From NCBI GenBank assembly GCA_041740315.1, contig JBGSMF010000263.1, forward strand, positions 2,165 through 66,164: a stretch of DNA of 64,000 bases, given 5' to 3'. The position numbers and the translations under genes were made by a program. The notes beneath the pieces were generated by a model. It searched no databases and was not told the origin of the DNA. It was given only the letters and a program-made list of their open reading frames with translations. This stretch comes from Thermoflexales bacterium (GTDB lineage: Bacteria; Chloroflexota; Anaerolineae; Fen-1058). This document shows, piece after piece, positions 5,655 to 62,178 of the stretch; position 1 is the first letter of the stretch, and every line of letters starts with the position of its first letter.

Positions 5655-5660
5655 TTAGGG

Positions 5661-5957: not shown

Positions 5958-6002
5958 TTTTAGTCGGTGGTCTTTGGTCGAATTGAGAAAGGAGGGCAGA
6001 GC

Positions 6003-7139: not shown

Positions 7140-7212
7140 TTCTCTATCTCTAGCTTTATCTCTAGTCTCTATCTCTATCTTTAATCTCTATCTCAACGGG
7201 AGGAATTACAGA

Positions 7213-7440
7213 ATGGATGCAGATGCAATCAAGCAATTGGCGGCAGGTTTGGCAATCGGGTTGGGCGCGCTTGGCCCCGGCATCGGTATTGGCCTTTTGG
7301 CCAACGGCGCTATGCAGGCCATCGGGCGCAATCCAGAGGCCGCCAGCCAGATTCAGCTCAACATGATTCTGGCCATCGCCTTTACCGAAGCCATCGCCAT
7401 TTACGCGCTGGTTGTGGCGCTCTTGCTCAAGTTTGTCTAG
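7213..7440 (+). CDS. atpE: F0F1 ATP synthase subunit c
   Basis: 75 aa hairpin, GPGIGIG, GRNPEA loop, ion-binding Glu in FTEAIAIY; GGGAGG RBS. Confidence 0.97.
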   Translation: MDADAIKQLAAGLAIGLGALGPGIGIGLLANGAMQAIGRNPEAASQIQLNMILAIAFTEAIAIYALVVALLLKFV

Positions 7441-7519
7441 GTTGGTTACTAGGGATTAGAGTCTGATCTCCCATTTCTAATCTCTACTATCCAATCTCTA
7501 GTTTTAGAGGAGGGAACCC

Positions 7520-8245: not shown

Positions 8246-8261
8246 TGGCGGCAACTCGCTT

Positions 8262-8349
8262 CTAGCAGGCTGTCGGAGAGGTAGCCTAGCCCCTCGTGGG
8301 CGACGCGCACAAGGCGCTGCGCTACGAGCTCTCTCCAACAGGCTGCTAG
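8262..8349. mobile_element. MITE-like element with CTAG-flanked terminal inverted repeats
   Basis: CTAG-CAGGCTGTCGGAGAG ... CTCTCCAACAGGCTG-CTAG (13/15 IR match); related copy at 13656-13752. Confidence 0.7.
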
Positions 8350-8465
8350 TGTGCAGGCAAAGCCACCAAGCATACTGCGTTTTTGCGCTGGGTTGCAAAC
8401 GCTTGTTATTGAACGTCAAGGCGGCATGCGCGCGCTGTCCTTGACGTTTTGTTCTCGGAGGTACT

Positions 8466-8666
8466 ATGCGCAAGCAAGGATGTCTATCTGGATTATTAAA
8501 GTTGTTTTTGCTCGATGCCTTGTTTGATTGGCTGCAAAACCGCTTTGGTTTTGGGCGGGGGGTCTCGTGCACCGGTTGCGGCTGCGGTGTCATTTTGCTC
8601 ATTATCTTTTTGATGCTGGCTTGTTCGATTTTGAGCGGCACTGATTGGTTCCACCTCGGCTTTTGA
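8466..8666 (+). CDS. Small Cys-rich membrane hypothetical protein
   Basis: 66 aa, GGAGGT RBS, CTGCGCG motif then a TM helix; ends 4 nt before murE. Confidence 0.7.
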   Translation: MRKQGCLSGLLKLFLLDALFDWLQNRFGFGRGVSCTGCGCGVILLIIFLMLACSILSGTDWFHLGF

Positions 8667-8670
8667 AGCA

Positions 8671-10176
8671 ATGAGACTGGGTCAGCTTGTCGGTGCCTTG
8701 CCGCGCGCCGCTGTTGCGGGCAGCAGCGACGCCGAAATCACACACATCACCAGCGATTCACGCCAGGTAAAACCGGGGGCGTTATTTGTGGCTTATACTG
8801 GCGTGGGCGTGGATGGGCATGGCTTTATCGGCGACGCGGTGGGCCGAGGCGCGGCGGCTGTCGTGGGCCAGGTGGATGGCCTGGCTTGTGCTGTCCCTTA
8901 CATCCGGGTGCCCGATGGACGCGAGGCGCTGGCTTTTCTTTCGGCTGCCTGGCATGGTTTCCCGGCTCGCAAGCTGGTGATGATTGGCGTGACCGGCACC
9001 GACGGCAAAACGACGACGACGAACCTCATTCACAACATCCTTACGGCGGCGGGCATCAATGCCGGAATGATCAGCACTGTTAATGCCGTCATCGGTGGGC
9101 AGGCGTATGACACGGGCTTGCACACCACCACGCCCGACGCGCCCGATGTGCAAAAATACATGGCCCAGATGGTGCAGGCTGGGCAAACTCATTGTGTCTT
9201 GGAAGCCACCTCTGAGGGGCTGGCGCAGCGCCGCGTAGATGCCTGCGATTTTGACGTGGCGCTTGTCACCAATATCACTCACGAGCACTTGTACTTTCAC
9301 GGCACGCGCGAGGCCTATCGCGCTGCCAAAGGCAGATTGTTTGAGGCGTTATCCACGTCTTTTCACAAGGGGCCACCCAAGGTGGCGGTGCTCAATGCCG
9401 ATGATGCTTTTTCGTATGATTACCTGCGAGCGATGCCGGTTGATGCGCGCCTGACCTATAGCTTGAGCGGCCCGGCCGATATCGTTGCCCGCGAGCTGCG
9501 CTATGCCCCCCAGGCTACGCGTTTCTCGGTTGGCGCAATGGGTGAATGGTTCCCGGTGGAAACATCGCTAGTGGGGGCGTTTAATGTGGCCAATATTTTG
9601 GCGGCGGTTGGCGCGGCGGTGGCGATCAACACTATTTCTACCGAGGCGATTCAGCGCGGAATTGCTGCGCTGAAAGGCATTCCGGGGCGCATGGAGCGGA
9701 TTGATGAAGGGCAGGCTTTTCTGGCCCTGGTAGATTTTGCCCACACGCCGAATGCGCTGGAAAAGGCGCTGGAAACTGCGCGGCAAATGACAACCGGGCA
9801 GGTCATTGTGGTTTTTGGCGCGGCCGGCTTGCGCGATGTGCAAAAACGCGGCATGATGGGCCACGTGGCGGGCCGGCTGGCAGACAAGATTGTCATCACC
9901 GCCGAAGACCCGCGCACCGAATCGCTTGATGATATTATGGCAGCCGTAGCCCAGGGTTGCCTGGCGCAAGGCCGCCGCGAAGGAAGCGATTTCTGGCGCA
10001 TTGGCGATCGGGCCGAGGCCATTCGCTTTGCCGCAAGGCTGGCCCAGCCAGATGACGTGGTCATGGCCTGCGGCAAGGGACACGAGCAATCCATGTGCTT
10101 TGGCGCTACCGAGTACCCGTGGGATGATCGTCAGGCAATGCGAGAGGCGTTAAGAGGGATGAAGGATAAGGGATGA
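8671..10176 (+). CDS. murE: UDP-N-acetylmuramyl-tripeptide synthetase
   Basis: DSRQV, GVTGTDGKTTT, HTTTPD, TNITHEHL, PGRME, VDFAHTP, EDPR, GKGHE. Confidence 0.95.
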   Translation: MRLGQLVGALPRAAVAGSSDAEITHITSDSRQVKPGALFVAYTGVGVDGHGFIGDAVGRGAAAVVGQVDGLACAVPYIRVPDGREALAFLSAAWHGFPARKLVMIGVTGTDGKTTTTNLIHNILTAAGINAGMISTVNAVIGGQAYDTGLHTTTPDAPDVQKYMAQMVQAGQTHCVLEATSEGLAQRRVDACDFDVALVTNITHEHLYFHGTREAYRAAKGRLFEALSTSFHKGPPKVAVLNADDAFSYDYLRAMPVDARLTYSLSGPADIVARELRYAPQATRFSVGAMGEWFPVETSLVGAFNVANILAAVGAAVAINTISTEAIQRGIAALKGIPGRMERIDEGQAFLALVDFAHTPNALEKALETARQMTTGQVIVVFGAAGLRDVQKRGMMGHVAGRLADKIVITAEDPRTESLDDIMAAVAQGCLAQGRREGSDFWRIGDRAEAIRFAARLAQPDDVVMACGKGHEQSMCFGATEYPWDDRQAMREALRGMKDKG

Positions 10177-48572: not shown

Positions 48573-49591
48573 CAAGTCCCTCGCACCACCACTGCTATTG
48601 CCGTCAACACCATATTGGCCAGCGAGATGGGCAGCATCACCTTCCACCCAAACGCCATCAAGCGATCGTAGCGAATGCGCGGCAGGGTAGCCCGCACCCA
48701 CACCATAATCAACAATGCCGCTGCCACCTTGCCAAAGAAATACAGCGGGCCAAGGCCGGGCAACTGTCCGGCCAGCGGCCCGTTGTAGCCGCCAAAAAAC
48801 AGCGTCACTACCAGCGCGCTGACGGCAATCATCTTGATGTATTCGGCCATAAAGAACAACGCAAACTTTATGCCGCTGTACTCGGTGTGATAGCCCGCCG
48901 TTAGCTCTTGCTCGGCCTCTGGCAGGTCGAACGGGGCCCGGCTCACCTCGGCCAGCACGCTGAGGCAAAACATCAGGCAAGCCACTGGCTGCAAAAAGAC
49001 AAACCACACCTTCTGCTGCGCGGCTACAATTTGGTTCAGGTCGAGCGTGCCGCAAAGCAGCACCACGCTGAGGACCGATAGCCCCATCGCCAGCTCGTAG
49101 CTGATCATCTGCGCCGACGAACGCAGCGCGCCCAGCAAGCTGTACTTGTTGTTCGAAGACCAGCCCGCCAGCGCAATGCCGTACACGCCGATTGAAGTGA
49201 TGGCCAGCACGTACAGCAGCCCGACGTTGATGCCGCCCTCCGAGCTGGGCGCGACGACCAAAGACACCTGGCGGCCAAACAACTCTACCACCCCGCCAAT
49301 GGGCACCACGGCAAAGATGACCAGCGCCGGGATGACCGCCACCAGGGGCGCGAGCACAAAAATGACCTTGTCTGCGCCCGATGGGATCAATTCTTCTTTA
49401 AAGATGAGCTTGATGCCGTCGGCCACCGGCTGTAGCCAGCCGAACTTGCCGGCGCGGTTTGGCCCGTAGCGCATCTGCAAGCGAGCGATAAACTTGCGCT
49501 CGAGCAGCGTCATGTAGGCAAAGCCTGTCAGCGCTCCAGCAACAATGCCCAGGCTCTTGAGCAACGCTTCAATGATTAAACCTGTGTCCAT
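48572..49591 (-). CDS. nuoH: NADH-quinone oxidoreductase subunit H
   Basis: LERK, RYGPNR, QPVADGIKLIFKE, AQMISYE, RAPFDLPEAE, RIRYD. Confidence 0.96.
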   Translation of the reverse strand: MDTGLIIEALLKSLGIVAGALTGFAYMTLLERKFIARLQMRYGPNRAGKFGWLQPVADGIKLIFKEELIPSGADKVIFVLAPLVAVIPALVIFAVVPIGGVVELFGRQVSLVVAPSSEGGINVGLLYVLAITSIGVYGIALAGWSSNNKYSLLGALRSSAQMISYELAMGLSVLSVVLLCGTLDLNQIVAAQQKVWFVFLQPVACLMFCLSVLAEVSRAPFDLPEAEQELTAGYHTEYSGIKFALFFMAEYIKMIAVSALVVTLFFGGYNGPLAGQLPGLGPLYFFGKVAAALLIMVWVRATLPRIRYDRLMAFGWKVMLPISLANMVLTAIAVVVRGT

Positions 49592-49637
49592 GCACTTTCC
49601 AGTAGACGAACGACAAACGACCAATGACAAAAATTGG

Positions 49638-51992
49638 TCACCTGTCAACCAGGTGTGCTTTTAGCCGCTCTGATTTTTCAACCAACGTGCCGCGCCGATA
49701 TAATGGTCGCGCTTTGATGGGCGCCACTTGCGGCTCTACCCAGCGCAGCTCGTAACGCTCAGCCGATTCACAGCCCGCTGACAATTGCACCCCCAGCCCG
49801 TCGCGGTTATCGTACACCGTGCCGCCAAAGTACAGGTCGTCGTACCCTACCGGCGGCCATTGTGGGGCGACTTGCGCCAGGCGGGCGTAAGTTGCTTGGG
49901 CATAGCCCGGCATAGTGGCGGCCAGCTCGACCATGATTTCTTCCGAGGTGGCGTAATTCCAATCCAAGCCCAATTTGCGCGCTACTCTCTGCATAATTTG
50001 CCAGTCTGGCTGCGCTTGGCCCAGGGACGGCAAAGCCTTGTAAAAGCGCTGCACACGCCGCTCGGCATTGGTAAAGGTGCCATCGCGTTCGGCCCAACTG
50101 ACGGCCGGAAGGACCACATCGGCCTTGCGCGCTGTTTCGGTGGCAAACAACTCTTGGCAAATGACAAACGCGCTGGGGGGTAATTCTGCGCCGTCTCCCA
50201 CCGGGTCGGCGCCGGCGATATATAACGTGGAAGGCTCAAAGCCAAAATCCGGCGTTTGAAATCCCAGAGTCGTAATTTGATCCAGCACGCCCTGGGTGTT
50301 GGCATGGGGCCACACCGGCAGCAAGCCATTGTTGGGCCGGCCCACGTGCCCAGTGAGAACCGCCAGGTTAGCCAGATGTTGCGGCAGCGACTCGGGTGCG
50401 CCGACGGTGCCAAAGGCAAAAATGGTATTTCCGGCTGCTGCCAGCGCGCGCGCTGTGCTGACAATCGCCTCTGGCGGCACGCCGGTCAATTCGCTCACCC
50501 GCGCGGGTGTAAATTCGGCCAGCTTGGCCTCTAGCTCAGCCAGTCCAGACACCAGGTTTCTATCAGAAGCCTGGTGTCTCTCCAAAATTACGTTTAAAGT
50601 TACGTTCAGCAAACCTAGCACGACATGTGTCTCTGTGCCCTCACGGCACTGAAGGCACGTAACTTGAGCCGGCTGGGTGGAATTTTTGGGTCTGAAACTC
50701 GAAACTTGGAATTTTGGAATTGACCTCAGCCGCAAATTCCATACAGGCGCTTCTTCCTTCAGGTCGGCCCCCACAATCAAGACAACGCTGTTAGCCGGAT
50801 CCAATCTGCCCAAATTCGTTCCGGTCGCCACACCGTATTGCCGCGCCACCTGCGCGCCCCCCACACACGGGTACATTTGCATCCAATCCGATTTAAAGCC
50901 CTGGCGCAGCAGCTTGCCCAGTAGATACACATCTTCGTTGGGCAGACAGTCGCCCACCAGCGCAACTGTCTTGCCGCTTTCCAGCCTGAGCTTTTCGCTC
51001 ACCACCGCCAGCGCCGCATCCCAAGAAATCGGCTGAAGGCTCTCGCCCCAGCGCACCAAGGGCTGGGTCAGACGTTGGGGGCTGTGCGTGTGACCGTGCC
51101 CAAAGCGGCCCTTGTCGCAAATCCATATCTCATTCACCTGCTCGTTTTGTCGGGGCATGACGCGCAAAATTTCCCAGCCGCCCCCTCGCTTGGCGCTGCG
51201 GCGCGTGCTGAGGGTGAGGTTGCACCCCACCGCGCAGTGAGGACACAGGCTGGGGATATTGGTCAGCTCCCACGGGCGGGCACGAAAGTGAAAATCTACC
51301 GTCGTCAGCGCGCCCACCGGGCAGATATCGGTGGTGTTGCCCGAAAAATGGCTATTGAACGGCGGAGCGGAAAACGTAATGATTTCCAGCTTGCGCCCGC
51401 GCTCTGAAAAGCCCAGCACGTGGTCGCCGGCGATTTCATCTTGGAAGCGGACGCAGCGCGCGCATTGGATGCAGCGTTCGCGATCCAGCCAGATGAGGTC
51501 GCCCAGCGGGACGTGCTTGTCTAGCAGTTGCTTGTCTAAAAATTCAAAGCGGGTCTTGCCCGGCCCATAGGCCATCGTCAGGTTTTGCAATGGGCACTCG
51601 CCGCCCTTGTCGCAAATGGGGCAATCGAGAGGATGGCTGGTGAGCAGCAGTTCCAGCACCTCGCGCTGAGCGGCCTTGACTGCGTCGCTTTGCGCGGCGG
51701 TGCGCACCTGCATCCCCTCGCTGACGGGCGTGGTGCAGGCTGTTTGCAGCTTTAGGTTCCAGACAATTTTTTGCTGGCCGCTTTCATCCAGCACCGGCTG
51801 GCCCGTGGCGCGGTCAATGGCTGGCGTGCCAATCTCCACCAGGCACATGCGGCACATCCCCACCGGCTTGAGCTTGGGGTGATAGCAAAACACGGGAATG
51901 GTGATGCCCACCGATTTGGCTGCATCTACCACCAACGTGCCGGCGGGCACGCTCACTTGCTGGTCGTCAATGAATAGGTTAACCAAGTTCAT
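49638..51992 (-). CDS. nuoG: NADH-quinone oxidoreductase subunit G
   Basis: PVFCYH, CRMCLVE, HPLDCPICDKGGECPLQ, CIQCARC, DICPVGAL, CPHCAVGC. Confidence 0.96.
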   Translation of the reverse strand: MNLVNLFIDDQQVSVPAGTLVVDAAKSVGITIPVFCYHPKLKPVGMCRMCLVEIGTPAIDRATGQPVLDESGQQKIVWNLKLQTACTTPVSEGMQVRTAAQSDAVKAAQREVLELLLTSHPLDCPICDKGGECPLQNLTMAYGPGKTRFEFLDKQLLDKHVPLGDLIWLDRERCIQCARCVRFQDEIAGDHVLGFSERGRKLEIITFSAPPFNSHFSGNTTDICPVGALTTVDFHFRARPWELTNIPSLCPHCAVGCNLTLSTRRSAKRGGGWEILRVMPRQNEQVNEIWICDKGRFGHGHTHSPQRLTQPLVRWGESLQPISWDAALAVVSEKLRLESGKTVALVGDCLPNEDVYLLGKLLRQGFKSDWMQMYPCVGGAQVARQYGVATGTNLGRLDPANSVVLIVGADLKEEAPVWNLRLRSIPKFQVSSFRPKNSTQPAQVTCLQCREGTETHVVLGLLNVTLNVILERHQASDRNLVSGLAELEAKLAEFTPARVSELTGVPPEAIVSTARALAAAGNTIFAFGTVGAPESLPQHLANLAVLTGHVGRPNNGLLPVWPHANTQGVLDQITTLGFQTPDFGFEPSTLYIAGADPVGDGAELPPSAFVICQELFATETARKADVVLPAVSWAERDGTFTNAERRVQRFYKALPSLGQAQPDWQIMQRVARKLGLDWNYATSEEIMVELAATMPGYAQATYARLAQVAPQWPPVGYDDLYFGGTVYDNRDGLGVQLSAGCESAERYELRWVEPQVAPIKARPLYRRGTLVEKSERLKAHLVDR

Positions 51993-53836
51993 TTCCGCTT
52001 TTTTGTCCGGGCGCGTCCCATTCGACCGGCCGCCCTCTCCAATTCAGCTTGAAAAGCGCTGTGGCGAGGAAAGCTTTCTCGCGCGCTGTTCAGCATAGCA
52101 TCCGCATCTTTGCCCTGCGCTTGCAGCATCTCTGCGCAGGCGGCCACAAGCACGGCCGCCTTGTCGTAACTTTTGCGGTGTTGCCCGCCCACAATAGCCT
52201 GCATCCGCTTGTTGGCCGTGTCAATGCACCAGGCTGAAAATCTAGTTTGCTGCTCCTTACTCAAAGACGCATTGGGAAGCATTTGGGCATAGGTGTGCTC
52301 TATGCGTTCTGGCAAGCGATTATCTTGGCTGGCAAGGGCGTCTGCTTCCACCCAGCCTTCTTTGTCTTCATAATCATCGTAATCATTGTAGTACGCCATG
52401 CCCCCATAGCCAAACCCGATGCTGCTGCGCAGTGCAGAACGCCAGAGCTCTTTTAAATTTGCGGGCATTGTGGCGTCGGTGCAGCCTGCCAGCAGCGCGA
52501 GGAAAAACGCCAGGCACCACCCTTGTGAACTGGTGTCATAGCTCCAACCTAATACTTGCATGTGAGCGACTTGCTTGTGGGCGGCATCCCAATCTTGGGC
52601 CAACAAATACGCATGAACCAGGACAGATTCGTCAGTCCATGCCTCTTCCTCTTGGTCATCTGGGGGCCACTCTGCGCTTGCTGAGTTGGCTTTGCGCGGC
52701 GGATGGGCAATATAATCTTTCAGGTATTCTGCTGCTTGCCGCATCCACTTGAGCTGCTCTTTGCCCGCGGCAACGGTGTCTTGCAAATCAAGCAAGCATC
52801 CCAGGCCAGGTTGAGCCTCAAAAGCCTGCCAGCGCCCATCGCGCAGGGCTTGGGGGTCATTGAGCTTGCTGGCAGCAACGCACAGGTGATCGGCGACAGC
52901 GGCGCGGATAGGCTGCTTTTCCGGCAGAATCAGGAGAGCCTGTTGCGCAGCGGCGAGCACCTCGGCGTGTTTGCCCTCGCTTTCCAGCGCAGTGAACCAA
53001 TCCAGGTACGCTCTGGGGCGTTTTTTGCCTTCCTTGAGCGCCAGTTTTTCTAGCCCGGCTGTGCCTTGCGAAAGGCGAATGGCCTCTCGCAGCCAGGCGT
53101 CGGCGTCAGCGCCTTTTTGCTTGCGCAGAAAAGCAACCCACTCTTTTAAAAATTGGTCTTGATCGGGCAGCGGCTTGGGTGAAATTTGAATCACATCATC
53201 TAGCATGGCGCGCGGCTTGCCAAAGCCAAAGCGTGATTGTTGCATCTGTTCAAAGAGCGCCTGGGGGCGGCTTGCCTGGGGTTCGGTTTCGTACACCGCG
53301 CGCAAGTAACGCGCCCACAGCTCGGCCTTGTCTACCTGGTCAAGGTCGCTTATCCGCACGCCCCGCCCATGGTCATCTTCCAGGCTGAGCGTCTCGTAAA
53401 GCTTTTGATAGGCCTTGCGCGCCAAAGTCAGCTTGCCATAATCAAACACGGCATCCACCCGCTCAACCAATGCCGCCAGCGGTTCTACAAAATCCTCGTA
53501 AGGGCTAAGGCTATCCTCATCATCGTGATAATCGCCCCACTCGTCGTAATAGCCTTCGTCCCAATATTCCTCGGCGTTCTTCATGGCGGCCTTGATTTCA
53601 CGCGCCAGGTCGCCAATATCGGCCAGCAGGTCTTCTTGCCCAATCGCCTGCTGGATAGCCGAGCCTGTTTCTGCGGCCGGTTCCAATTTGGCTAGAAAAG
53701 CTTGCCGGCCTGCCGGCAAGGTCTCGTGCGCCATTGCGCGCAAAATGGCGCGCAGTTCATCGGCAGAGCATTGGTCCAGCCGCTGCTCCACCGCTTCCCA
53801 AAATGCTTTTAATGTCATTTTTTCTTTGCTTGGCAT
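51989..53836 (-). CDS. Hypothetical 615-aa predicted all-helical protein with acidic/aromatic patches
   Basis: Long ORF with GGAG RBS; stop overlaps nuoG start (ATGA); C-terminal HRKSYDKAA...FPRHSAFQAEL. Confidence 0.8.
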   Translation of the reverse strand: MPSKEKMTLKAFWEAVEQRLDQCSADELRAILRAMAHETLPAGRQAFLAKLEPAAETGSAIQQAIGQEDLLADIGDLAREIKAAMKNAEEYWDEGYYDEWGDYHDDEDSLSPYEDFVEPLAALVERVDAVFDYGKLTLARKAYQKLYETLSLEDDHGRGVRISDLDQVDKAELWARYLRAVYETEPQASRPQALFEQMQQSRFGFGKPRAMLDDVIQISPKPLPDQDQFLKEWVAFLRKQKGADADAWLREAIRLSQGTAGLEKLALKEGKKRPRAYLDWFTALESEGKHAEVLAAAQQALLILPEKQPIRAAVADHLCVAASKLNDPQALRDGRWQAFEAQPGLGCLLDLQDTVAAGKEQLKWMRQAAEYLKDYIAHPPRKANSASAEWPPDDQEEEAWTDESVLVHAYLLAQDWDAAHKQVAHMQVLGWSYDTSSQGWCLAFFLALLAGCTDATMPANLKELWRSALRSSIGFGYGGMAYYNDYDDYEDKEGWVEADALASQDNRLPERIEHTYAQMLPNASLSKEQQTRFSAWCIDTANKRMQAIVGGQHRKSYDKAAVLVAACAEMLQAQGKDADAMLNSARESFPRHSAFQAELERAAGRMGRARTKKRK

Positions 53837-53858
53837 AGCTCCTCCATTGCATCAGGCG

Positions 53859-54605
53859 TCATTTCTTGTGGAACGCAAAATCGGCAAACGTCTGCCCCTC
53901 CAGATAATCTGGAAAAGTATAGACGCCCGTAACTTGAACAAAACACCGATCTGGAAACTTGGCCCAACCGCGAGCCAGCCCGACTCGCAGGTAAACGTCC
54001 CTCGACTGCAAGGCCGCTGTCAACTCGGCGGCAATCTTTATCGGGGCGCAGCCTTGCTCACGTTGACGATCGTGGTAGTATCGCCACGCCAGGTCCGTAA
54101 CCGTCAACCGATAAATCTGTCCTTCGCCATCATTAAAGACAAGACGGTATTGCCATTTGTTTTCAGGCGAAAGGTCGTGAATCACAGATTGTATCTGTTG
54201 AGGTCGAATCGTGCCGAGAGAACGCACTCCTTGGCCCAATTTGACGTAGCAGCCATAATCAAAGTAAAGCAGCGTTTCAAAAACCGACCTAACGCTGGCA
54301 AAAAGCGTCCGGTCGAGTATTTCCCTTTTGGCTTTTTCGTCCACTCGCTTGATAAAGCGCACCGTGGAGGGATTGTAGCGATAATCTTCTGTATGTGGCG
54401 GCTCGGGCACTGCTTGTAGCAGGTCATATTCCACCACCGCAAAAGGGTAAACACTTGGGCGACCCTGCCCGTATAACGTGCTCTCATGAATGCCAGGCGG
54501 CGGCAAAGTTGGGCGGATGCAGTGGCCCTGTCTATCGTAACCGGCCACGCACACGCGCCCTTCTTGCATGCGCGTCAAATCGGTAATGACAATCTCTTTC
54601 TTCAC
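53859..54605 (-). CDS. Dual OB-fold domain-like protein
   Basis: IVITDLTRM..GRVCVAG....CIRP, SLGTI, YRL.F, L.VTD, YLRVGLAR; GTGA overlap with upstream DUF488. Confidence 0.7.
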   Translation of the reverse strand: MKKEIVITDLTRMQEGRVCVAGYDRQGHCIRPTLPPPGIHESTLYGQGRPSVYPFAVVEYDLLQAVPEPPHTEDYRYNPSTVRFIKRVDEKAKREILDRTLFASVRSVFETLLYFDYGCYVKLGQGVRSLGTIRPQQIQSVIHDLSPENKWQYRLVFNDGEGQIYRLTVTDLAWRYYHDRQREQGCAPIKIAAELTAALQSRDVYLRVGLARGWAKFPDRCFVQVTGVYTFPDYLEGQTFADFAFHKK

Positions 54606-55039
54606 AGGTGAATAATCTCCACACCCGACCAATGCGCCGCAAGCCGCTCGGCGACCAGGCGGCGGTGGCACCGCTCAGGCGCAGCCTCGCTACAAAGCAA
54701 ACAGGAAACTTGCTCAAACTCGGCCCGATTCAAAGCGGTAGGGATGTTTCGTTCATCCATAAGGGATTCAAAACGCTCAACGTATCGGACCCAATCTGAA
54801 TCCTGGCGATAATCCTTCAAGAGTTCCTTGGTTGGCGACAGTTCAGGCATGTAGACGTATTGGCAACCGGCCGCAAGGGCGGCAAGAAAGTAGGGCAGAT
54901 CATCTTGTTTGGCAAAGCCGGCCAGTTGCCCGCCCGGGTTCAGGCGAATATCCACCAATCGCTGCACGCCATGCCGCCGCAGCAACTCGAAGAAATCTTG
55001 GGCGCGTTTTTGAGTAAAACCTATTGTGTAAATCTTCAT
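54602..55039 (-). CDS. DUF488 family protein
   Basis: IYTIGFT, LVDIRLNP..QLAGFAK, LLCSE..PE.CHRRLVAE; ATGA overlap. Confidence 0.88.
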   Translation of the reverse strand: MKIYTIGFTQKRAQDFFELLRRHGVQRLVDIRLNPGGQLAGFAKQDDLPYFLAALAAGCQYVYMPELSPTKELLKDYRQDSDWVRYVERFESLMDERNIPTALNRAEFEQVSCLLCSEAAPERCHRRLVAERLAAHWSGVEIIHL

Positions 55040-55581
55040 AGCAAAGTTAGCTGTTCTACTGGCGGCAATTCGTCCACCGAGGCAAGAATTGACCTGGCGC
55101 CAAACACCGAACCATCGCCGCGAATGTGCCGCACGTCTACCTCGGGGCGCTCCGCGATGAGATATTTTGCAATCAAGTGGTGCCGGTGACATTCGGCCGG
55201 ATTCTCCTCGCTGCACATAATTGCCGTCGTTTGCTCGTCGGCCAGTTCCAACAAGCGTTCTATGCCTTTGATAAACCACGAACGCTTCATCACTTCTGGA
55301 TAATCCACCTCGTGTAAATAGTCTGTTCCCTCGGCCGGCAGCGCGCGGCTCTTGTAGCAGAGCGGGTCGGATGGGCGGCCTCCCAGGTATTTGCCAGCAT
55401 GAGCATATTGAATTTCGCGCTGCGGCAAAACAGCTTCAAGGTTCTCTTTGTTGAATTGTGGATTGTAGCGGCTGTAGGGCGCAGTGCGCACGTCAACCAA
55501 GAGCATAACGCCATTGTCCTCTAGCAAAGCGATAAATTTTTCCAAGCTGTGATTGCTGTGGCCAATAGTCAAAAGCTTCAT
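55036..55581 (-). CDS. DUF488 family protein (second subtype)
   Basis: LTIGHSN, LVDVR.APYSR..PQFN, LGG, IMCSEENP.ECHRH. Confidence 0.88.
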   Translation of the reverse strand: MKLLTIGHSNHSLEKFIALLEDNGVMLLVDVRTAPYSRYNPQFNKENLEAVLPQREIQYAHAGKYLGGRPSDPLCYKSRALPAEGTDYLHEVDYPEVMKRSWFIKGIERLLELADEQTTAIMCSEENPAECHRHHLIAKYLIAERPEVDVRHIRGDGSVFGARSILASVDELPPVEQLTLL

Positions 55582-55596
55582 ATCACATCCTGTCTC

Positions 55597-56853
55597 CTAC
55601 ACTTGGCTCACTTTTGCCAAATATTCGTCTTTGAACAAGTTGACGCTAGATAATATCGGCGCAATGGCAAATTCACCCAGCGGGCACAAGCACTTGTTTT
55701 GCATCTGACCGGCCACGCTGCACAGCAACTCAACGTCGTCTGGCTTGCCGTGCCCGGCCGCCAGCCGCTCGAAAATATGTAGCAGCCAATAGGTGCCCTC
55801 GCGGCAGGGAGTGCACTTGCCGCACGACTCGTGCTTGAAAAAGCGAATGACCTTGTGCATCGCCCAAACTATATCAGTGGTCGAATCCATCACGATGACC
55901 GAGGCCGAGCCAAGCATCGAGCCGGCGCCGGCCACCGATTCGTAATCGAGCGGCGTATCCAGCTTGTCGCCCGTAATCAGCGTAGACGACGCGCCCGAAG
56001 GCATGAGGGCCTTGACCTCGGTGCCCTCGCGCAGCAGACCTTGGCCGTATTCCTGGCCGTAAATCAGATCTCGAAAGGTGATGGCGCCGAGCGGGGCTTC
56101 GTAATTGCCGGGGCGCTTGACGTGTCCGCTGAGGGAGTATATCTTGGGGCCGGGGCTTTTTTCGGTGCCAAAGCGCCGATAGGCCGCCGCGCCGTTCAAG
56201 ATGATGTAGGGCACATTGGCCAGCGTTTCAACATTGTTGATGACGGTGGGCCGGCTGTATAGCCCCTCGACGGCGGGGAAGGGGGGGCGCAGGCGCGGCT
56301 GGCCGATTTTGCCCTCTAGCGATTCGAGCAAGGCCGTTTCTTCGCCGCAGATATAGGCCCCCGCGCCCAAATGAACTGCCACGTCCACCGTCACGCCGCT
56401 GCCCAGGATATTTTGCCCCAGGTAACCGGCTTTGTAGGCCTTGTCTACCGCCGATTGCAGCGCGCGCGCCGGTTGGGCAAATTCGCCGCGACAGTAGATA
56501 TAGACCTTTTCGGCCTGCACAGCAAAAGCGGCCAACGCAGCGCCTTCGATCACCTGGTGAGGGTTCTTTTCGAGCAATTGGCGATCTTTGAACGTGCCCG
56601 GCTCGGATTCATCGGCATTGACCACCACATAATGTGGCAGTGCGCCCTTGACAAAGCTCCACTTGAGGCCGGTGGGAAAGCCTGCCCCGCCGCGCCCGCG
56701 CAGGCCCGAATTCGTCACCTCTTGCTTAACCTGATCCGGCCCCATCGAGGTGAGCGCCTTGCGCAAGGCCGCGTATCCAGCGTGCTCAACATAGACATCC
56801 AGCTTGCCAATATCGGGAATATCCAGGTCGCGCAAAAGGATGTGTTGCCCCAT
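55597..56853 (-). CDS. nuoF: NADH-quinone oxidoreductase subunit F
   Basis: SGLRGRGGAGFPTGLKW, NADESEPGTFKDR, GAGAYICGEETAL, HESCGKCTPCREG. Confidence 0.97.
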   Translation of the reverse strand: MGQHILLRDLDIPDIGKLDVYVEHAGYAALRKALTSMGPDQVKQEVTNSGLRGRGGAGFPTGLKWSFVKGALPHYVVVNADESEPGTFKDRQLLEKNPHQVIEGAALAAFAVQAEKVYIYCRGEFAQPARALQSAVDKAYKAGYLGQNILGSGVTVDVAVHLGAGAYICGEETALLESLEGKIGQPRLRPPFPAVEGLYSRPTVINNVETLANVPYIILNGAAAYRRFGTEKSPGPKIYSLSGHVKRPGNYEAPLGAITFRDLIYGQEYGQGLLREGTEVKALMPSGASSTLITGDKLDTPLDYESVAGAGSMLGSASVIVMDSTTDIVWAMHKVIRFFKHESCGKCTPCREGTYWLLHIFERLAAGHGKPDDVELLCSVAGQMQNKCLCPLGEFAIAPILSSVNLFKDEYLAKVSQV

Positions 56854-57282
56854 TCAAACCTCGTCGCTATCCCGCTTGCTCACATACACAATGTCGTGCG
56901 TTTTATATCCCTCGCGCGCAAACAGCGCCTGCGAAGAGGCGTTATCGCCTTCGATCAAGGCGGCAAAAATGTGGATGCCCATCGCGCGCAGCTCGTTTTC
57001 AGTGGCGGTGACCAATTGCGCTGCATAACCCTTGCGGCGATGCTGGGGGTGAATGGCCAGCCGGTTGATCCACCCTTTGCGCGTGTCTTGGGTCACCACC
57101 ACCACGCCAATCAGCTCGCCGCCTTCTTCCAGCCCCAAGATCACTTGCCCGGCAGCCATCTGTGCCGCCATGGTCGCGCGGCTGTCGCGCCCTTGCGCGC
57201 GAATGCTGTGTAGCCCGGCCAACTGCCACAGTCCAATGATTGCGTCGTAATCGTCAATTGTCAAACGTCGAATGGTTGCCAT
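56854..57282 (-). CDS. GNAT family N-acetyltransferase within the nuo operon
   Basis: GWINRLAIHPQHRRKGYA, N..S..LF...GY; start overlaps nuoE stop (TAATG). Confidence 0.88.
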   Translation of the reverse strand: MATIRRLTIDDYDAIIGLWQLAGLHSIRAQGRDSRATMAAQMAAGQVILGLEEGGELIGVVVVTQDTRKGWINRLAIHPQHRRKGYAAQLVTATENELRAMGIHIFAALIEGDNASSQALFAREGYKTHDIVYVSKRDSDEV

Positions 57283-57767
57283 TAACCGGAAAATCGCCGC
57301 AAAAGCAACTCGAACTGTTCTTGAGTGAGGTTTTCAAAATAACTCAGGTCAATTTGCGTCATGGGGGCGCGGTCGCACGCGGCCAGGCACATTACGGTTT
57401 CTACCGTAAACTGGCCGTCCTCCGTCGTTTGCCCGCCGTGGCGCACTTTGTCTGGATCGAGCTTGAGCCGCTGGCACACGTGGTCTACAAACTCGTCTGC
57501 GCCGCGCAGCGCGCATGGCAGATCATCGCAAATTTGGATGACGTGCTTGCCCGTTGCGTGGTCGTAAAACAGCGTATAAAAGCCCACCACCGAGCGCACC
57601 TCGGTTGGATCCAGCTCCACAATCTGTGCTATCTCGCGGGTGACCTCATCGGTGCAGTGGCCGTACACCTTTTGCGCCAGGTGCAGCAGCGGCATCACTG
57701 CCGAACGCCTGGCCGGGTATTTGGCCAGAATGGCCTCTACATCGTCTCGGTGAGTTTTCAACAGCAT
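57282..57767 (-). CDS. nuoE: NADH-quinone oxidoreductase subunit E
   Basis: RSAVMPLL..AQ, FYTLF, CDDLPC...CLAAC [2Fe-2S] ligands. Confidence 0.95.
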   Translation of the reverse strand: MLLKTHRDDVEAILAKYPARRSAVMPLLHLAQKVYGHCTDEVTREIAQIVELDPTEVRSVVGFYTLFYDHATGKHVIQICDDLPCALRGADEFVDHVCQRLKLDPDKVRHGGQTTEDGQFTVETVMCLAACDRAPMTQIDLSYFENLTQEQFELLLRRFSG

Positions 57768-57872
57768 AACAACCCCAAATTTTTAGGACGCGGATTTTCA
57801 CGGATGCAACGGATGAACACGGATTATCCTAAAAGCATCTGCGTCAATCTGTGTTATCTGTGTCCCAATAGA

Positions 57873-59117
57873 TTAGCGATCCACGTCGCCGAGCACAATA
57901 TCAACACTGCCAATGATGGCCACCAGATCGGCCACCATCGCGCCCTTGGAAAGCTGCGGCAAGGCCGCCAGGTTGGCAAACGATGGGCAGCGAAAATGCA
58001 CCCGGCGCGGCAGGCCGCTGCCATCGCTGCACAAATAAACGCCAAACTCGCCGCGCGGCGATTCGACCGCCGTGTACACCTCGCCCACCGGCGGGCGAAA
58101 GCCCTCGGTCCACAGCTTGAAATGATGGATGAGCGCTTCCATGCTATAGGCCAGTTCTTCCTTGGGCGGCGGCGCCACTTTGCGGTCATCGGCAATGTAT
58201 GGGCCGCCAGGCAATGTATCTAGTGCTTGCTGAATAATCCGTAGGCTTTCCCACATCTCCATCATCCGGCAGCGATAGCGGTCGTACACGTCGCCATTTT
58301 GGCCCAGGGGCACATCGAACTGGAAATGGTCGTAGCTGGAATACGGCATGGCCTTGCGGATATCCCAGTTGACGCCGCTGCCGCGCAGGCTGGGGCCTGT
58401 CATGCTCCACGCGATAGCCGTTTTGGCGTCTACCACGCCAATGCCCTGGGTGCGGTCTAGCCACAAGGGGTTTTCCTTCAGCAGCGCCTCGTACTCTTGT
58501 ATGCGCCCTGGCATCAGCTTGAGAAATTGTTGAACTGCCGGCGCAAAATCGGCGGGCACGTCGCGCCACAGCCCGCCAGGGCGAAAATAGCTGGCCATCA
58601 TCCGCTGCCCCGAAACCAGCTCGATGATGTCTAAAATAGCCTCGCGCTCGCGGAAACAGTACAAGAACATGCTCATTGCGCCGATATCCAGCGCGTGCGT
58701 GCCCAGCCAGACCAGGTGGCTGGCAATGCGAGACAGCTCGCACAAAATCACCCGCACGTACTGCGCCCGCGGCGGCACCGGCACATCCATCAATTTTTCC
58801 ACGGCCATGCAATAGCCCAGGTTGCTCGAGAGCGGCGACAGATAATCCATTCGATCCGTCAGCGGGATGACCTTGACATAGGTTTCTTTTTCAGCCGTCT
58901 TTTCAATGCCGGTGTGCAAAAAGCCGACATCTGGCACGCAACTGATGACATTTTCGCCATCTAGCTCCAACAGCAGGCGCAGCACGCCGTGGGTGCTGGG
59001 ATGCTGCGGGCCCATGTTCAGCAGCATTGTCTCGCCGCTGATGGCGCGCTCGGAAACCAAACTTTTCAATTGGTCGAGTGTGACCTCACTCACTCCAGAT
59101 TCTTGCAGAGTAGGCAT
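57873..59117 (-). CDS. nuoD: NADH-quinone oxidoreductase subunit D
   Basis: NMGPQHPSTHGVLR, GFLHTGIEK, DRMDY, RIASH, ESPRGE, LGDVDR. Confidence 0.97.
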   Translation of the reverse strand: MPTLQESGVSEVTLDQLKSLVSERAISGETMLLNMGPQHPSTHGVLRLLLELDGENVISCVPDVGFLHTGIEKTAEKETYVKVIPLTDRMDYLSPLSSNLGYCMAVEKLMDVPVPPRAQYVRVILCELSRIASHLVWLGTHALDIGAMSMFLYCFREREAILDIIELVSGQRMMASYFRPGGLWRDVPADFAPAVQQFLKLMPGRIQEYEALLKENPLWLDRTQGIGVVDAKTAIAWSMTGPSLRGSGVNWDIRKAMPYSSYDHFQFDVPLGQNGDVYDRYRCRMMEMWESLRIIQQALDTLPGGPYIADDRKVAPPPKEELAYSMEALIHHFKLWTEGFRPPVGEVYTAVESPRGEFGVYLCSDGSGLPRRVHFRCPSFANLAALPQLSKGAMVADLVAIIGSVDIVLGDVDR

Positions 59118-59136
59118 ACTTGTCCTGCGTTGGGTA

Positions 59137-59661
59137 TTAGGTATTGGGCATGGCATACGGCTTTTGACTGTCTATTTCGTCAAAGTTGTGCGTGAATTGC
59201 ACTTGTTCTACATACAACCCCAGGTGATCCCGGCGCATGGGGTGCCCCATATAGTCTTCGGGCAGCAGCAAGCGGCGGAGATCGGGGTGACCCACAAACG
59301 TAATACCAAACAAATCATAGACCTCGCGCTCGTACCAGTTTGCGCCCGGCCACACACCCGTCACCGATTGCACCTGTGCAGCTTGCTGGAGCACGCGCAC
59401 CTTGAGCCGCAGGCGGATGTTGTGAGACATTGAGTAAAGCTGGTAGTTGAGGTCAAAGCGGGGATCGCGCGGCAAATGGTCTACGGCGCATAAATCTGTG
59501 AACATGTTGAACGCCATTTCATCGCGCAAGAATGTAGCTAGCTCAACCAAATGCTCAGATTGAACCACCAGCGTCACTTGGCCGCGAAACTCGATCACCT
59601 CGATCACGGCGTTGGCAAAGCGCTCGCGCAGTTCTAGGGCAATCGTCTTCAAATCCGTCAT
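59137..59661 (-). CDS. nuoC: NADH-quinone oxidoreductase subunit C
   Basis: ANWYEREVYDLFGI.F.GHPDLRR, GHPMRRD. Confidence 0.95.
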   Translation of the reverse strand: MTDLKTIALELRERFANAVIEVIEFRGQVTLVVQSEHLVELATFLRDEMAFNMFTDLCAVDHLPRDPRFDLNYQLYSMSHNIRLRLKVRVLQQAAQVQSVTGVWPGANWYEREVYDLFGITFVGHPDLRRLLLPEDYMGHPMRRDHLGLYVEQVQFTHNFDEIDSQKPYAMPNT

Positions 59662-59672
59662 CTTTCCACTTC

Positions 59673-60155
59673 CTACTTCCAATCCGCCAGTTTTTCGCCC
59701 TTGACCTTTTCGTGCAACTTGATAATGCCGTCAATCAGCGCCTCGGGGCGGGGCGGGCAGCCTGCCACGTACACATCCACCGGCACAATCTCGTCTACCC
59801 CCTGCACAATGGCATAGTTGTTAAACACCCCTCCGTTCGAAGCGCAATCGCCCATTGCAATCACCCACTTGGGGTCTGGCATCTGGTCGTACAAGCGGCG
59901 CAGCACTGGGGCCATCTTGCGCGATACGCGCCCGGCTACAATCATCAAATCGCTCTGGCGCGGGCTGGCGCGCATCAGTTCCATGCCAAAGCGGCTCAGA
60001 TCATAATGGCTGGCCTGCGCGCTCATCATTTCGATGGCGCAACAGGCCAGGCCAAACAACATGGGCCACATGGCGTTGGTGCGCGACCAGTTGACAACCT
60101 TTTCCAACGTGGTCGTCAGCACACCCAGATTGCCCAGCTTTTGCTCTAGTCCCAT
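59673..60155 (-). CDS. nuoB: NADH-quinone oxidoreductase subunit B
   Basis: [28 protein letters not shown]. Confidence 0.97.
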
Positions 60156-60511
60156 TCAAACGCCCCCTTTTTCCACGCATACACATACCCCACCAGCAAA
60201 ATGAGGACAAACACAATCATCTCGCCCAACAAAAACCAGCCGGCCTCACCGGCCCCCCTTAGCAGAACCGCCCAGGGGAACAAGAAAATAATCTCTACGT
60301 CGAACAAGATGAACAGGACCGCCACCAGATAGAACTTGATCGGAAAGCGCCGTTGAGCCGGGCCGATGGGCGTCATGCCAGATTCGTAGGCGCTTTGCTT
60401 GCGCGGCGTGGGGCGGCGCGGGCCCAAAAGCGTGCCCAGCAATACAGCCGCTGCCGCGATAAATGTCGCTACCCCAAAAAGGATCAAGATAGGCAAATAG
60501 CTAGACAACAC
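60146..60511 (-). CDS. nuoA: NADH-quinone oxidoreductase subunit A
   Basis: [27 protein letters not shown]. Confidence 0.96.
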
Positions 60512-60586
60512 ATCTGCTCCTTTCAACCTCACCCATCTCTATCTATGGGAGGGGTTAGGAGAGGTTAATACAAGCACAACGGTTGT

Positions 60587-60615
60587 ATCTTAGCACAAAC
60601 CATTCTCAAAATCAA
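60587..60615 (-). promoter_or_regulatory. Putative nuo operon promoter
   Basis: Minus strand TTGATT-17 bp-TAAGAT with TG extension. Confidence 0.55.
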
Positions 60616-60723
60616 GACCGATTTCTTTTTAATTGGCGTATTGGTTCAGTCTATCCTATTCCAGCTTAACCCTGGCTGTGGTATAATCCAAAATACATTA
60701 TCGAGGCAATCCAGCTAAATGCT

Positions 60724-62178
60724 ATGACGATTACGATTTTGGGCCTGGGGCCCGGCCGCATCAACCAATTGACGCTTGAAGCGTGGCAACTTTTGACCGA
60801 GGCGTCCGAGCTTTACCTGCGCACGTGCCGGCATCCCACCGTGGCAGGCTTGCCGCCGCACCTGCAATGGCACAGTTTTGATGCGCTGTACGACCAGGCT
60901 GAGGATTTTGAGCATGTCTATGATGCCATCGCCAGCCAAGTGGTGCAATTGGCGCAACGTCCCCAGGGCGTCATTTACGCTGTGCCGGGCCACCCGTTGG
61001 TAGGGGAAGCCACGGTGACGCGCATTCTCAACCTGGCCGAACAAGCCGGCATCAACGCGCGCGTCATCGGCGCGCCCAGTTTTATCGAACCCGTGCTGGA
61101 AGCGCTGCGGCTTGACGCAATGGGCGGGCTGCAAATTTTTGATGCGCTCGACCTGGCCTCCATGCATCACCCGCCGCTCAACCCAGATGTGCCGGCCATC
61201 GTCGGCCAGCTTTACAGCCGCCAGATAGCGGCAGAAGTCAAGCTGACGCTGATGAACCAATACCCCGATGAACACCCGATGACGATTTTGCAGGCCGCCG
61301 GCACACCCAGCCAGCGCAGCGAGTCTTTGCCTCTGTACGAGCTGGACCGGCGTGATTATGATCATCTGACCACTCTGTACGTGCCGCCATTGGCCCAGCC
61401 GGGCGGCCTGGAAATGTTCCAGGATACCATTGCGCGGCTGCGCGCGCCCGACGGCTGCCCGTGGGATCGCGAACAGACTCATCAAACGCTGAGCCGCAAT
61501 CTGATGGAAGAGGCTTTCGAGGTCTTGCAGGTGTTGGATGCCGACGATGCCGGCGCGCTGTGCGAAGAGCTGGGCGACCTGCTTTTGCAAATTGTGCTCC
61601 ACAGCCAGATTGCGGTCGAGTCTGGCGAGTTTAGCATGGCTCAAGTTGTTGCGCACATTGATGCCAAGATCAAGCGCCGTCACCCGCACGTGTTTGGCAA
61701 CATTCAGGTTTCGGGCGTGGACGATGTCATTAGCAACTGGGAAGCTATCAAACAGGGTGAACGCGAGCAAGCCAACCACCAGGCCGCAACTAACAAGTCT
61801 ATACTGGCCGGTGTGCCAGCGGCGCTGCCGGCATTGGCCCAGGCCGAGGCCTATGGCGAACGGGCTGCCCGCCTGGGCTTTGATTGGCCCAATATCGCCG
61901 GCGTGCTGGATAAAGTGAACGAGGAACTGCGCGAGCTTGAGCAAACTACAGAAGCCCAAGCGCGCACAGCCGAATTTGGCGATCTGTTGTTTGCCTTGGT
62001 CAATGTGGCTCGCTGGCTGGGCATTGACCCAGAAGCGGCCCTGCGGCAGGCCAATGCCAAGTTTGCCAGCCGCTTTCAAGGAGTAGAGGAACAAGCCCGC
62101 GCTCAGGGGCGCGCGCTCCCTCAGATGAGCCTGGATGAAATGGAGCAGCTTTGGCAGGCCGTTAAAGCAGCAGAGTGA
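60724..62178 (+). CDS. mazG: Tetrapyrrole-methylase-like/MazG nucleoside triphosphate pyrophosphohydrolase (YabN-like)
   Basis: GLGPG, YAVPGHP; LR.PDGCPWDREQT, EELGDLLLQ, RRHPHVF, EFGDLLF. Confidence 0.93.
   Translation: MTITILGLGPGRINQLTLEAWQLLTEASELYLRTCRHPTVAGLPPHLQWHSFDALYDQAEDFEHVYDAIASQVVQLAQRPQGVIYAVPGHPLVGEATVTRILNLAEQAGINARVIGAPSFIEPVLEALRLDAMGGLQIFDALDLASMHHPPLNPDVPAIVGQLYSRQIAAEVKLTLMNQYPDEHPMTILQAAGTPSQRSESLPLYELDRRDYDHLTTLYVPPLAQPGGLEMFQDTIARLRAPDGCPWDREQTHQTLSRNLMEEAFEVLQVLDADDAGALCEELGDLLLQIVLHSQIAVESGEFSMAQVVAHIDAKIKRRHPHVFGNIQVSGVDDVISNWEAIKQGEREQANHQAATNKSILAGVPAALPALAQAEAYGERAARLGFDWPNIAGVLDKVNEELRELEQTTEAQARTAEFGDLLFALVNVARWLGIDPEAALRQANAKFASRFQGVEEQARAQGRALPQMSLDEMEQLWQAVKAAE

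Follow-up and report, generated by a model that had tools for sequence, protein, structure and literature searches.

The genes between nuoF and nuoG

The window, a stretch of 64,000 nucleotides (nt) from a Thermoflexales bacterium (Chloroflexota; Anaerolineae), carries on its minus strand a nuo operon for NADH dehydrogenase (complex I) in which 3.6 kb of DNA separates nuoF from nuoG. The insert consists of four non-respiratory genes co-oriented with the operon, giving the order nuoF, DUF488a, DUF488b, DuOB, H615, nuoG. We call the first three inserted genes, which encode two DUF488 paralogs and a dual-OB protein, the triad. The operon as a whole reads nuoA-B-C-D-E, GNAT, nuoF, the four inserted genes, nuoG, nuoH-N; coordinates are given in Table 1, and Pfam also confirmed nuoE, nuoA, and nuoN. 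An initial annotation of this DNA had described four co-oriented genes splitting nuoF from nuoG, the 15-nt spacing after nuoF, and a chain of overlaps, all of which we confirmed from the sequence. ATGA joins DUF488a to DUF488b, GTGA joins DUF488b to DuOB, and the end of H615 overlaps the start of nuoG. The GTG start of DuOB agrees with the N terminus conserved among its homologs. On the other side of nuoF, the GNAT stop codon abuts the nuoF start; the best NCBIfam match of this acetyltransferase was to generic GNAT, below the cut-off.

The lack of an integrase, of terminal repeats, and of an evident promoter belonging to the insert, also reported initially, was borne out by our scans. There was no integrase among the scanned open reading frames (ORFs) between 38 and 64 kb of the window, and the insert is flanked by no direct or inverted repeats beyond short matches of chance size. 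Promoter-like sites numbered 8 versus 5.1 ± 2.4 in shuffled sequences, none of them in the spacer before DUF488a, and terminator-like sites numbered 15 versus 15.7 ± 3.8. Rfam gave no matches across positions 49000 to 61500. The boundaries of 17 copies of the triad shared no 9-mer, with some k-mers common to two or three copies. Of the marks of a mobile element or an integron cassette, namely, a recombinase, terminal repeats, or an attC-like boundary, none was found in these scans.

Table 1. Features of the nuo operon in the window and of related loci and proteins (aa, amino acids; ssDNA, single-stranded DNA; AF2, AlphaFold2)
Feature	Position	Strand	Evidence
nuoF (NADH dehydrogenase 51-kDa subunit), upstream anchor	55597..56853	-	Pfam Complex1_51K 4.9e-50, NADH_4Fe-4S 2.1e-28
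15-nt spacer from nuoF stop to DUF488a start, GGAGACAGGATGTGAT, with GGAG Shine-Dalgarno-like motif	55582..55596	-	Sequence read
DUF488a, 181 aa, PADLOC PDC-M45B type	55036..55581	-	Pfam DUF488 6.5e-25; PDC-M45B 1.9e-45
DUF488b, 145 aa, PDC-M45C type, Pfam DUF488-N3a ("active" subclade)	54602..55039	-	DUF488 1.7e-24; PDC-M45C 6.4e-55
DuOB, 248 aa, GTG start, tandem OB fold, predicted binder of ssDNA or DNA ends	53859..54605	-	Pfam DuOB 4e-14
22-nt spacer before H615, GGAGGAG ribosome-binding motif	53837..53858	-	Sequence read
H615, 615 aa, all-alpha TPR-like solenoid, independent passenger	51989..53836	-	No Pfam, NCBIfam, or PADLOC family; AF2 model all helices
nuoG, downstream anchor, ATG overlaps the H615 TGA	49638..51992	-	Pfam Fer2_4, NADH-G_4Fe-4S_3, Fer4_Nqo3, Molybdopterin
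GNAT acetyltransferase between nuoE and nuoF, second non-respiratory operon gene	56854..57282	-	Pfam Acetyltransf_1 1.6e-14
~106-aa ORF, genome G015	L015:11543-11863	-	
AbiEii-type toxin, genome G015	L015:10918-11583	-	Pfam
DuOB-RecQ-linked locus	L018:7220-10213	-	Domain scan
DuOB-RecQ-linked locus	L050:7902-11588	+	Domain scan
DuOB-RecQ-linked locus	L019:2929-6755	-	Domain scan
DuOB fusion proteins (full RecQ, RQC+HRDC, HRDC alone, or HEAT)	P0279, P0374, P0325, P0282, P0246, P0307		

Distribution of the triad and H615 and contents of the junction

With an alignment of close DuOB homologs (A2), which samples only the DuOB subfamily of the window, we scanned a single genome from each species; an alignment of diverse DuOB proteins (A1) was too divergent for a scan of loci. 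The scan gave 21 loci, by record title 19 from Chloroflexota, one from Planctomycetaceae, and one from an "uncultured bacterium." The order DUF488a-DUF488b-DuOB, with the same tight spacing, was present in 18 of them; of the remaining three, one contig starts inside DuOB, one copy is decayed, and one is a fragment. The DUF488 pair and the dual-OB gene thus form a recurrent linked module, as had been proposed. H615 was found at none of the 21 loci, clustering of the flanking ORFs gave no recurrent neighbor, and 16 loci were without any nuo gene. Both flanks were visible at 16 loci. At 13 of these the triad follows a co-oriented ORF that ends no more than about 170 nt before it; the next ORF downstream is convergent at 9 of the 13 and co-oriented at the other 4. 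Elsewhere, some copies have signals that belong to the triad itself, either a promoter resembling TTGAC-17-TATAAT or a strong terminator hairpin.

In another Anaerolineales genome (L041, positions 4008 to 9334) the triad likewise lies inside a housekeeping operon. There the order is gatC (a weak match), gatA, DUF488a, DUF488b, DuOB, gatB, all co-oriented, with gaps of 33 and 115 nt; gatA scored 483.7 bits with its NCBIfam equivalog model (cut-off, 481.1) and gatB 611.8 bits. Elsewhere, one Thermomicrobiales record set has two triad copies in one genome (L054 and L056), each adjoining a Zn_peptidase gene, and in one of these copies both DUF488a and DuOB are interrupted by a stop or frameshift.

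H615 belongs to no Pfam, NCBIfam, or PADLOC family, a match to Drt1a at 0.018 being at chance level. More than 445 homologs were found at about 52 to 60% identity, the few with a named source coming from Anaerolineae or Chloroflexota, and the gene occurs in 19 of 401 genomes of the class. The AF2 model is an all-helical solenoid with a predicted local distance difference test score (pLDDT) of 81.8; Foldseek gave generic TPR matches only, with template modeling (TM) scores of ≤0.23, and the matches in the protein atlas were clusters without names, plus a weak lead to DUF6880 (0.92). At 18 H615 loci outside the nuo operon of this family, the fetched flanks held no DUF488, DuOB, or nuo ortholog, and no neighbor was conserved. 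Of the 21 H615 loci, 3 are within nuo and come from a single family, so linkage to nuo is not consistent. Four other genomes of the class hold both H615 and DuOB, on different contigs. The initial annotation took the four genes for a unit, offering for H615 the alternatives of a scaffold or a separate passenger. The four-gene unit did not hold up, since H615 is at none of the 21 triad loci and the triad at none of the 18 non-nuo H615 loci, and the passenger alternative did. At 3 of these 18 loci an ORF that is tyrosine-recombinase-like, by N-terminal sequence alone, lies near H615.

The region around nuoF was compared in 16 relatives from the same family, where nuoF orthologs are present at 65 to 79% identity (the nuoF tally, 22 of 22, includes genome G012, which no other claim uses). 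Both nuoF and nuoG were visible in 13 relatives. They were adjacent in four, with 80 bp between them in G017 and in G003, 130 bp in G014, and 214 bp in G010; in the other nine a gap of 0.39 to 3.7 kb was filled with co-oriented ORFs. A conserved ORF of ~106 aa occupies the junction alone in G002, G008, and G013 and together with an ORF of ~220 aa in G015, G016, G018, and G021. Only the ~220-aa ORF of G015 was scanned, and it encodes a type IV toxin, AbiEii (Pfam, 3e-21; PADLOC, AbiEii); we call its counterparts in G016, G018, G019, and G021 AbiEii-like because their translations look similar by eye. In G015 this pair of ORFs is followed by H615, and in G021 a further ORF of 119 aa precedes it. 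G004 has a 3.7-kb insert with the small ORF and two large ORFs of 394 and 693 aa that match no Pfam family (L029:5037-8143, plus strand). The order in G011 is nuoF-H615-DUF488a-DUF488b-small ORF-nuoG, without DuOB and unlike that of the window. In G019 (outside the 13), nuoF is followed by the small ORF and the AbiEii-like ORF, beyond which the operon is interrupted; in G007, the contig with nuoG begins within DuOB, which lies 30 nt upstream of nuoG, and the contig with nuoF ends at nuoF.

The ~106-aa ORF, which has no family and occurs without the toxin in G004 and G011 too, may be the cognate antitoxin of AbiEii. The window has no trace of either gene. Variation extends to the neighboring junctions: GNAT, present between nuoE and nuoF in 14 of the 16 relatives, is absent in G008 and G016, and G015 has a BrnT toxin gene (1.6e-27) with an overlapping 82-aa partner between GNAT and nuoF (L015:13273-13780, minus strand) and a 175-aa ORF between nuoG and nuoH. 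The nuoF-nuoG junction is a variable insertion hot spot in this family of Anaerolineae (Chloroflexota), and its differing contents and orders point to a single site at which genes were gained, lost, or shuffled repeatedly and independently.

Genome G001, from the same genus as the window genome (G000) and 85% complete, holds a decayed cassette (L044, which is G001:C21, positions 6228 to 8579). The remnant consists of GNAT (78% identical), the last ~33 codons of nuoF, a 16-nt spacer, DUF488a (86% identical), and DuOB residues 62 to 243. DUF488b and the N terminus of DuOB are deleted, and neither H615 nor nuoG is there. No ortholog of this nuoF or of nuoD was found in this 85%-complete genome, only paralogs at ~48 to 49% identity that G000 has as well. 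From this fossil arrangement it follows that the insertion predates the split between G000 and G001 and that operon and cassette can both decay. The idea that a place in an essential operon makes the genes hard to lose, put forward initially, is contradicted by this copy. G001 also has a nuoB fragment 3 kb upstream of the remnant. In G000 itself, further NuoF-like (39 to 49% identity) and NuoD-like (46%) genes lie on contigs C222, C283, and C331, so this nuo operon need not be the sole NADH-oxidizing module.

The DUF488 paralogs and DuOB

Pfam DUF488 (PF04343) matched DUF488a at 88.5 bits and DUF488b at 87.2 bits (cut-off, 22.2). The narrower family DUF488-N3a (PF22751) matched DUF488b at 47.6 bits (cut-off, 27) and DUF488a at 18 bits, below the cut-off. 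DuOB matched PF22557 at 53.6 bits (cut-off, 27), its residues 3 to 228 covering profile positions 1 to 210 of 210. Among the PADLOC models, PDC-M45B matched DUF488a (153 bits; profile positions 5 to 156 of 204) and PDC-M45C matched DUF488b (182.9 bits; positions 1 to 144 of 145). For PDC-M45A, matches came from DuOB of the relatives G007 (1.4e-9) and G019 (2e-8). From these relatives we take the window DuOB to be homologous but beyond the reach of the models, and PDC-M45 to be DuOB plus two DUF488 paralogs. The triad resembles PDC-M45 in having three components, with two DUF488 paralogs as B and C and a DuOB-type protein (~230 aa) as A; it differs in that the window DuOB is of a subfamily missed by the PDC-M45A models. 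The suggestion of a candidate anti-phage role is thus matched by the PADLOC listing of both DUF488 proteins, and that of a new system is not, the triad being already listed in Pfam (DuOB and DUF488-N3a) and in PADLOC (PDC-M45).

In 2023, Burroughs and Aravind reportedly placed DUF488 in the rhodanese-phosphatase superfamily and predicted that it processes DNA ends in virus-host conflict. We take the Pfam names DuOB (PF22557) and "Active DUF488-N3 subclade" (PF22751) to come from the same work. The window proteins resemble those DUF488-N3/DuOB systems in matching both families; the fusions to RecQ, RQC, and HRDC modules described below and the nuo and gat contexts come from our own analysis.

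The PDC systems are 145 candidates without experimental test, predicted from their position ("guilt by embedding") within loci for BREX, DISARM, and type I restriction-modification (R-M) (Payne et al. 2024, bioRxiv 10.1101/2024.01.29.577857). They resemble the window triad in that PDC-M45, too, was predicted from co-oriented embedding between the genes of another system; they differ in their hosts, which here are nuo (respiratory) and, in L041, gatCAB (translational), and not BREX, DISARM, or type I R-M. PDC-M45 is not mentioned in the main text of that preprint. A literature search gave no paper naming PDC-M45, no DuOB paper relevant by title, and none on this system among the DUF488 and rhodanese-phosphatase matches listed.

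Judged by their residues, both DUF488 paralogs look catalytically intact. The motif C-S-E-x5-C-H-R, which differs from the classical C-x5-R, is invariant or nearly so across 18 DUF488a and 19 DUF488b orthologs; the initial annotation was right about a conserved motif shared by both proteins and wrong about its spacing, given as x4. The motif falls at C123...C131-H132-R133 in DUF488a and at C116...C124-H125-R126 in DUF488b. Invariant residues were T5, G7, D30, R32, C123, S124, E125, C131, H132, and R133 in DUF488a and C113, C116, E118, C124, H125, R126, and R127 in DUF488b. All four inserted genes are under purifying selection, with nonsynonymous values (pN) of 0.08 to 0.28 versus synonymous values (pS) of 0.67 to 0.89; for DUF488a, pN was 0.08 to 0.12 versus a pS of 0.71 to 0.82. 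A DUF488 homolog, annotated as hypothetical, is present in 7 Gordonia phage records (H1 to H7, about 33.8 to 34.3 kb), with 30% identity over 99% of DUF488b (4e-8).

The predicted structure of DuOB is a tandem OB fold similar to those of ssDNA binders. Its AF2 model (pLDDT, 79.4; predicted TM score, 0.80) has two beta-rich halves, and the best Foldseek matches, in PDB and viral structures, were Teb1 AB, RPA, POT1, telomere end-binding protein, HIN domains, and baculovirus LEF-3. Like the DNA-binding domains of RPA, Teb1, and POT1, the model is thus a tandem of OB folds; unlike them, it shows no sequence similarity to these proteins, has its own invariant residues (C19, R31, P70-H71-x-E73-D74, R83, and R154), and reaches TM scores of only 0.24 to 0.36.

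DuOB is linked to RecQ in other genomes. It is fused to a full RecQ in G028, L050, P0279, and P0374, the fusion in G028 being preceded by a DUF488 of the PDC-M45B type, and in G007 it lies directly upstream of a TPR-RecQ gene. A profile search of 1.84 billion representatives gave 2098 DuOB proteins at an E value of ≤0.001, from which 10 longer ones were picked for a domain scan. RecQ helicase, RQC, or HRDC modules were found in 7 of the 10. The picked set held two proteins with full RecQ, one with a helicase core, one with RQC and HRDC, two with HRDC alone, one with HEAT repeats, and three with an N-terminal extension only. Such extensions, of ~140 to 180 aa in some DuOB proteins, have no family; that the ~140-aa extension is a DUF488b homolog was rejected (hhalign probability, 0.2%). 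DuOB can be compared with the accessory modules of RecQ helicases in that it replaces or precedes the N terminus of RecQ proteins, and the recurrent fusion with RecQ, RQC, or HRDC points to a DNA end or ssDNA as substrate. The RecQ parts matched PADLOC DpdF models best (up to 4.3e-207), as any RecQ would. Matches to the DuOB family occurred in 50 of 401 genomes of the class and in 41 of 215 genera, and tblastn found no DuOB in the plasmid collection. Among the relatives, the PF22557 search missed G010 and G001, which an alignment search found later, so its tally is an undercount.

Function and origin of the insert

We consider it probable that the 3.6-kb insert comprises two unrelated accessory units at a lineage-specific nuoF-nuoG hot spot, namely, a triad of the PDC-M45 type, with a likely role in conflict, and a stand-alone H615. 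DuOB, as a tandem OB protein like RPA, Teb1, and POT1, would bind ssDNA or a DNA end or junction and would position there the Cys-dependent DUF488 pair. Acting on the nucleic acid so bound, the paired enzymes would take off or transfer a phosphate, sugar-phosphate, or adduct at its terminus. Unwinding would be supplied by the RecQ helicase or RQC/HRDC modules that are fused or adjacent in other genomes. H615, a TPR-like protein, would have arrived at the junction independently. For the triad we judge inter-genomic conflict, whether anti-phage or selfish, to be more likely than housekeeping repair, because its distribution is patchy and mobile, because of its provenance in PADLOC, and because toxin-antitoxin cassettes occupy the same and neighboring junctions.

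Several points weigh against this reading. No mechanism of insertion was found, there being no recombinase, repeats, or conserved boundary motif. The window DuOB matches no PADLOC model even at an E value of ≤1, and PDC systems are by definition candidates without experimental support for defense (Payne et al. 2024). A sequence search for a solved relative of DUF488 found none, and what is shown for a putative rhodanese-phosphatase (PTP-like) Cys enzyme is the conservation of Cys, His, and Arg. Expression from the nuo transcript is what we infer from the lack of a recognizable promoter for either unit. H615 stands in the nuoF-nuoG gap of G000, G011, and G015, genomes that belong to two genera, so a link to complex I is conceivable. 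Finally, the neighbors of the triad are mostly housekeeping genes and not defense islands. The 20 flanking proteins that were scanned included SurE-NUDIX, aroQ, an amidohydrolase, MoxR, Zn peptidase, Usp, an RNA 2',3'-cyclic phosphodiesterase, an AlkD-like repair enzyme, HEPN, and a nucleotidyltransferase. Only HEPN (L052) and the nucleotidyltransferase (L048) look conflict-related, and SurE-NUDIX, the phosphodiesterase, and the AlkD-like enzyme fit repair or nucleotide metabolism equally well. DarTG, for which no systematic search was made, was not seen among these 20 proteins.

Defense systems embedded in operons are described in the same preprint, with PrrC in EcoprrI hsdMSR and Septu in Hma as examples (Payne et al. 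2024). As in those cases, promoterless co-oriented cassettes lie here between genes, and different cassettes share one junction across genomes; unlike those cases, in which the host is itself a defense system, the hosts here are operons of housekeeping enzymes with no evident functional coupling between host and guest. Tentatively, the DUF488-DUF488-DuOB, AbiEii, H615, and BrnT cassettes might all be promoterless conflict or selfish modules that colonize junctions in highly expressed housekeeping operons (nuoF-nuoG and gatA-gatB) and borrow their transcription, a generalization about which we remain doubtful. If true, it would make the nuoF-nuoG junction a "micro defense island" in a respiratory operon and would extend "guilt by embedding" to core metabolism. 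A respiratory operon can act as a landing pad for toxin-antitoxin and candidate defense genes, and such genes would be missed by searches based on defense islands. The triad is widespread (2098 cluster representatives matched the DuOB profile), and the leads added here are the intact-looking DUF488 proteins, the fusion of DuOB to RecQ, RQC, or HRDC, and a promoterless life in essential operons. The variable nuoF-nuoG hot spot, the gatCAB embedding, and the DuOB-RecQ link are worth keeping, and they make the biology of the module more testable.

A housekeeping role for the triad, in which it would repair DNA (or RNA) ends together with helicases of the RecQ family and its position in nuo would be incidental, seems to us rather unlikely. 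The RecQ, RQC, and HRDC fusions and adjacency would suit it, as would the three repair-like neighbors just named, the strong purifying selection, and the surroundings of the window copy, which lies in no defense island and is flanked by housekeeping genes (a MazG/methylase fusion, hpt, SurE, and cytochrome bd). Against these stand the sporadic occurrence of DuOB across genomes and genera of the class and a genomic position that differs in nearly every genome. PADLOC, moreover, picked the module up as embedded in defense systems (Payne et al. 2024). The module shares the nuoF-nuoG junction with AbiEii, and in G015 BrnT lies at the neighboring GNAT-nuoF junction. Its DUF488 has homologs in the seven Gordonia phages, and its RecQ-like partners match DpdF models best, with the reservation already given.

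The inserted genes, or at least H615 and GNAT, could instead be lineage-specific accessory or assembly factors of complex I, comparable to the extra ORFs in alphaproteobacterial nuo/nqo operons. We presume that the nqo operon of Paracoccus denitrificans has such extra ORFs and that they lie around nuoE, nuoF, and nuoG. Unidentified reading frames (urf genes) are interspersed in the nuo operon of Rhodobacter capsulatus (PMC9036352). Those of the two species resemble the present genes in being non-subunit ORFs inside a complex I operon; they differ in being fixed per species, with some proposed as assembly factors, whereas the content here varies between genera and includes toxin-antitoxin and candidate defense genes. 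The recurrence of H615 between nuoF and nuoG in three genomes and of GNAT between nuoE and nuoF in most relatives speaks for such factors. We nevertheless find this explanation improbable: no nuo ortholog lies near the 18 H615 loci of other families, few genomes of the class have H615 at all, the triad lies mostly away from nuo, and nuoF and nuoG are adjacent in four relatives.

More improbable still is the model of the initial annotation, in which the four genes together would make up a new system against phage or DNA damage, with the OB protein as sensor, the DUF488 pair as catalytic unit, and H615 as scaffold, retained by the essential operon. The genes are co-oriented and tightly packed, and helical-repeat partners of DuOB do exist (the HEAT fusion P0307 and the TPR-RecQ neighbor in G007). 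Homology of H615 to the HEAT tail of P0307 was rejected, however (probability, 0.1%). H615 and the triad occur apart at all the other loci counted above, and on different contigs in the four other class genomes that have H615 and DuOB. G011 lacks DuOB and has H615 on the other side of the DUF488 pair, G001 shows decay of cassette and operon, and the triad by itself is already in Pfam and PADLOC.

That the arrangement is an assembly chimera can practically be dismissed: although G000 is a metagenome bin of 519 contigs (7.8 Mb) with an estimated contamination of 9%, a single contig of 5166 bases from another assembler (run X1) spans positions 51500 to 56610 with zero differences and an even depth of 12.7, the gene overlaps are exact, and other records (G001, G007, and G011) show the same junction or a neighboring arrangement. 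Because X1 probably represents the source sample, its contig is not independent support; the junction of the nuoF 3' end with DUF488a is preserved in G001 as well. The misassembly of the junctions that the initial annotation had named as a possible objection is therefore not the case. Short contig "joints" that skip the ~3.9 kb from nuoG to nuoF were considered and rejected as an empty site; their sides are 21 to 37 letters long at 90% likeness, and we read them as conserved Fe-S motifs of other organisms.

At the upstream end of the operon, the tetrapyrrole-methylase/MazG fusion gene lies at positions 60724 to 62178 on the plus strand, divergent from nuoA. A 548-aa ORF that overlaps it on the opposite strand has no family and is probably not a gene.

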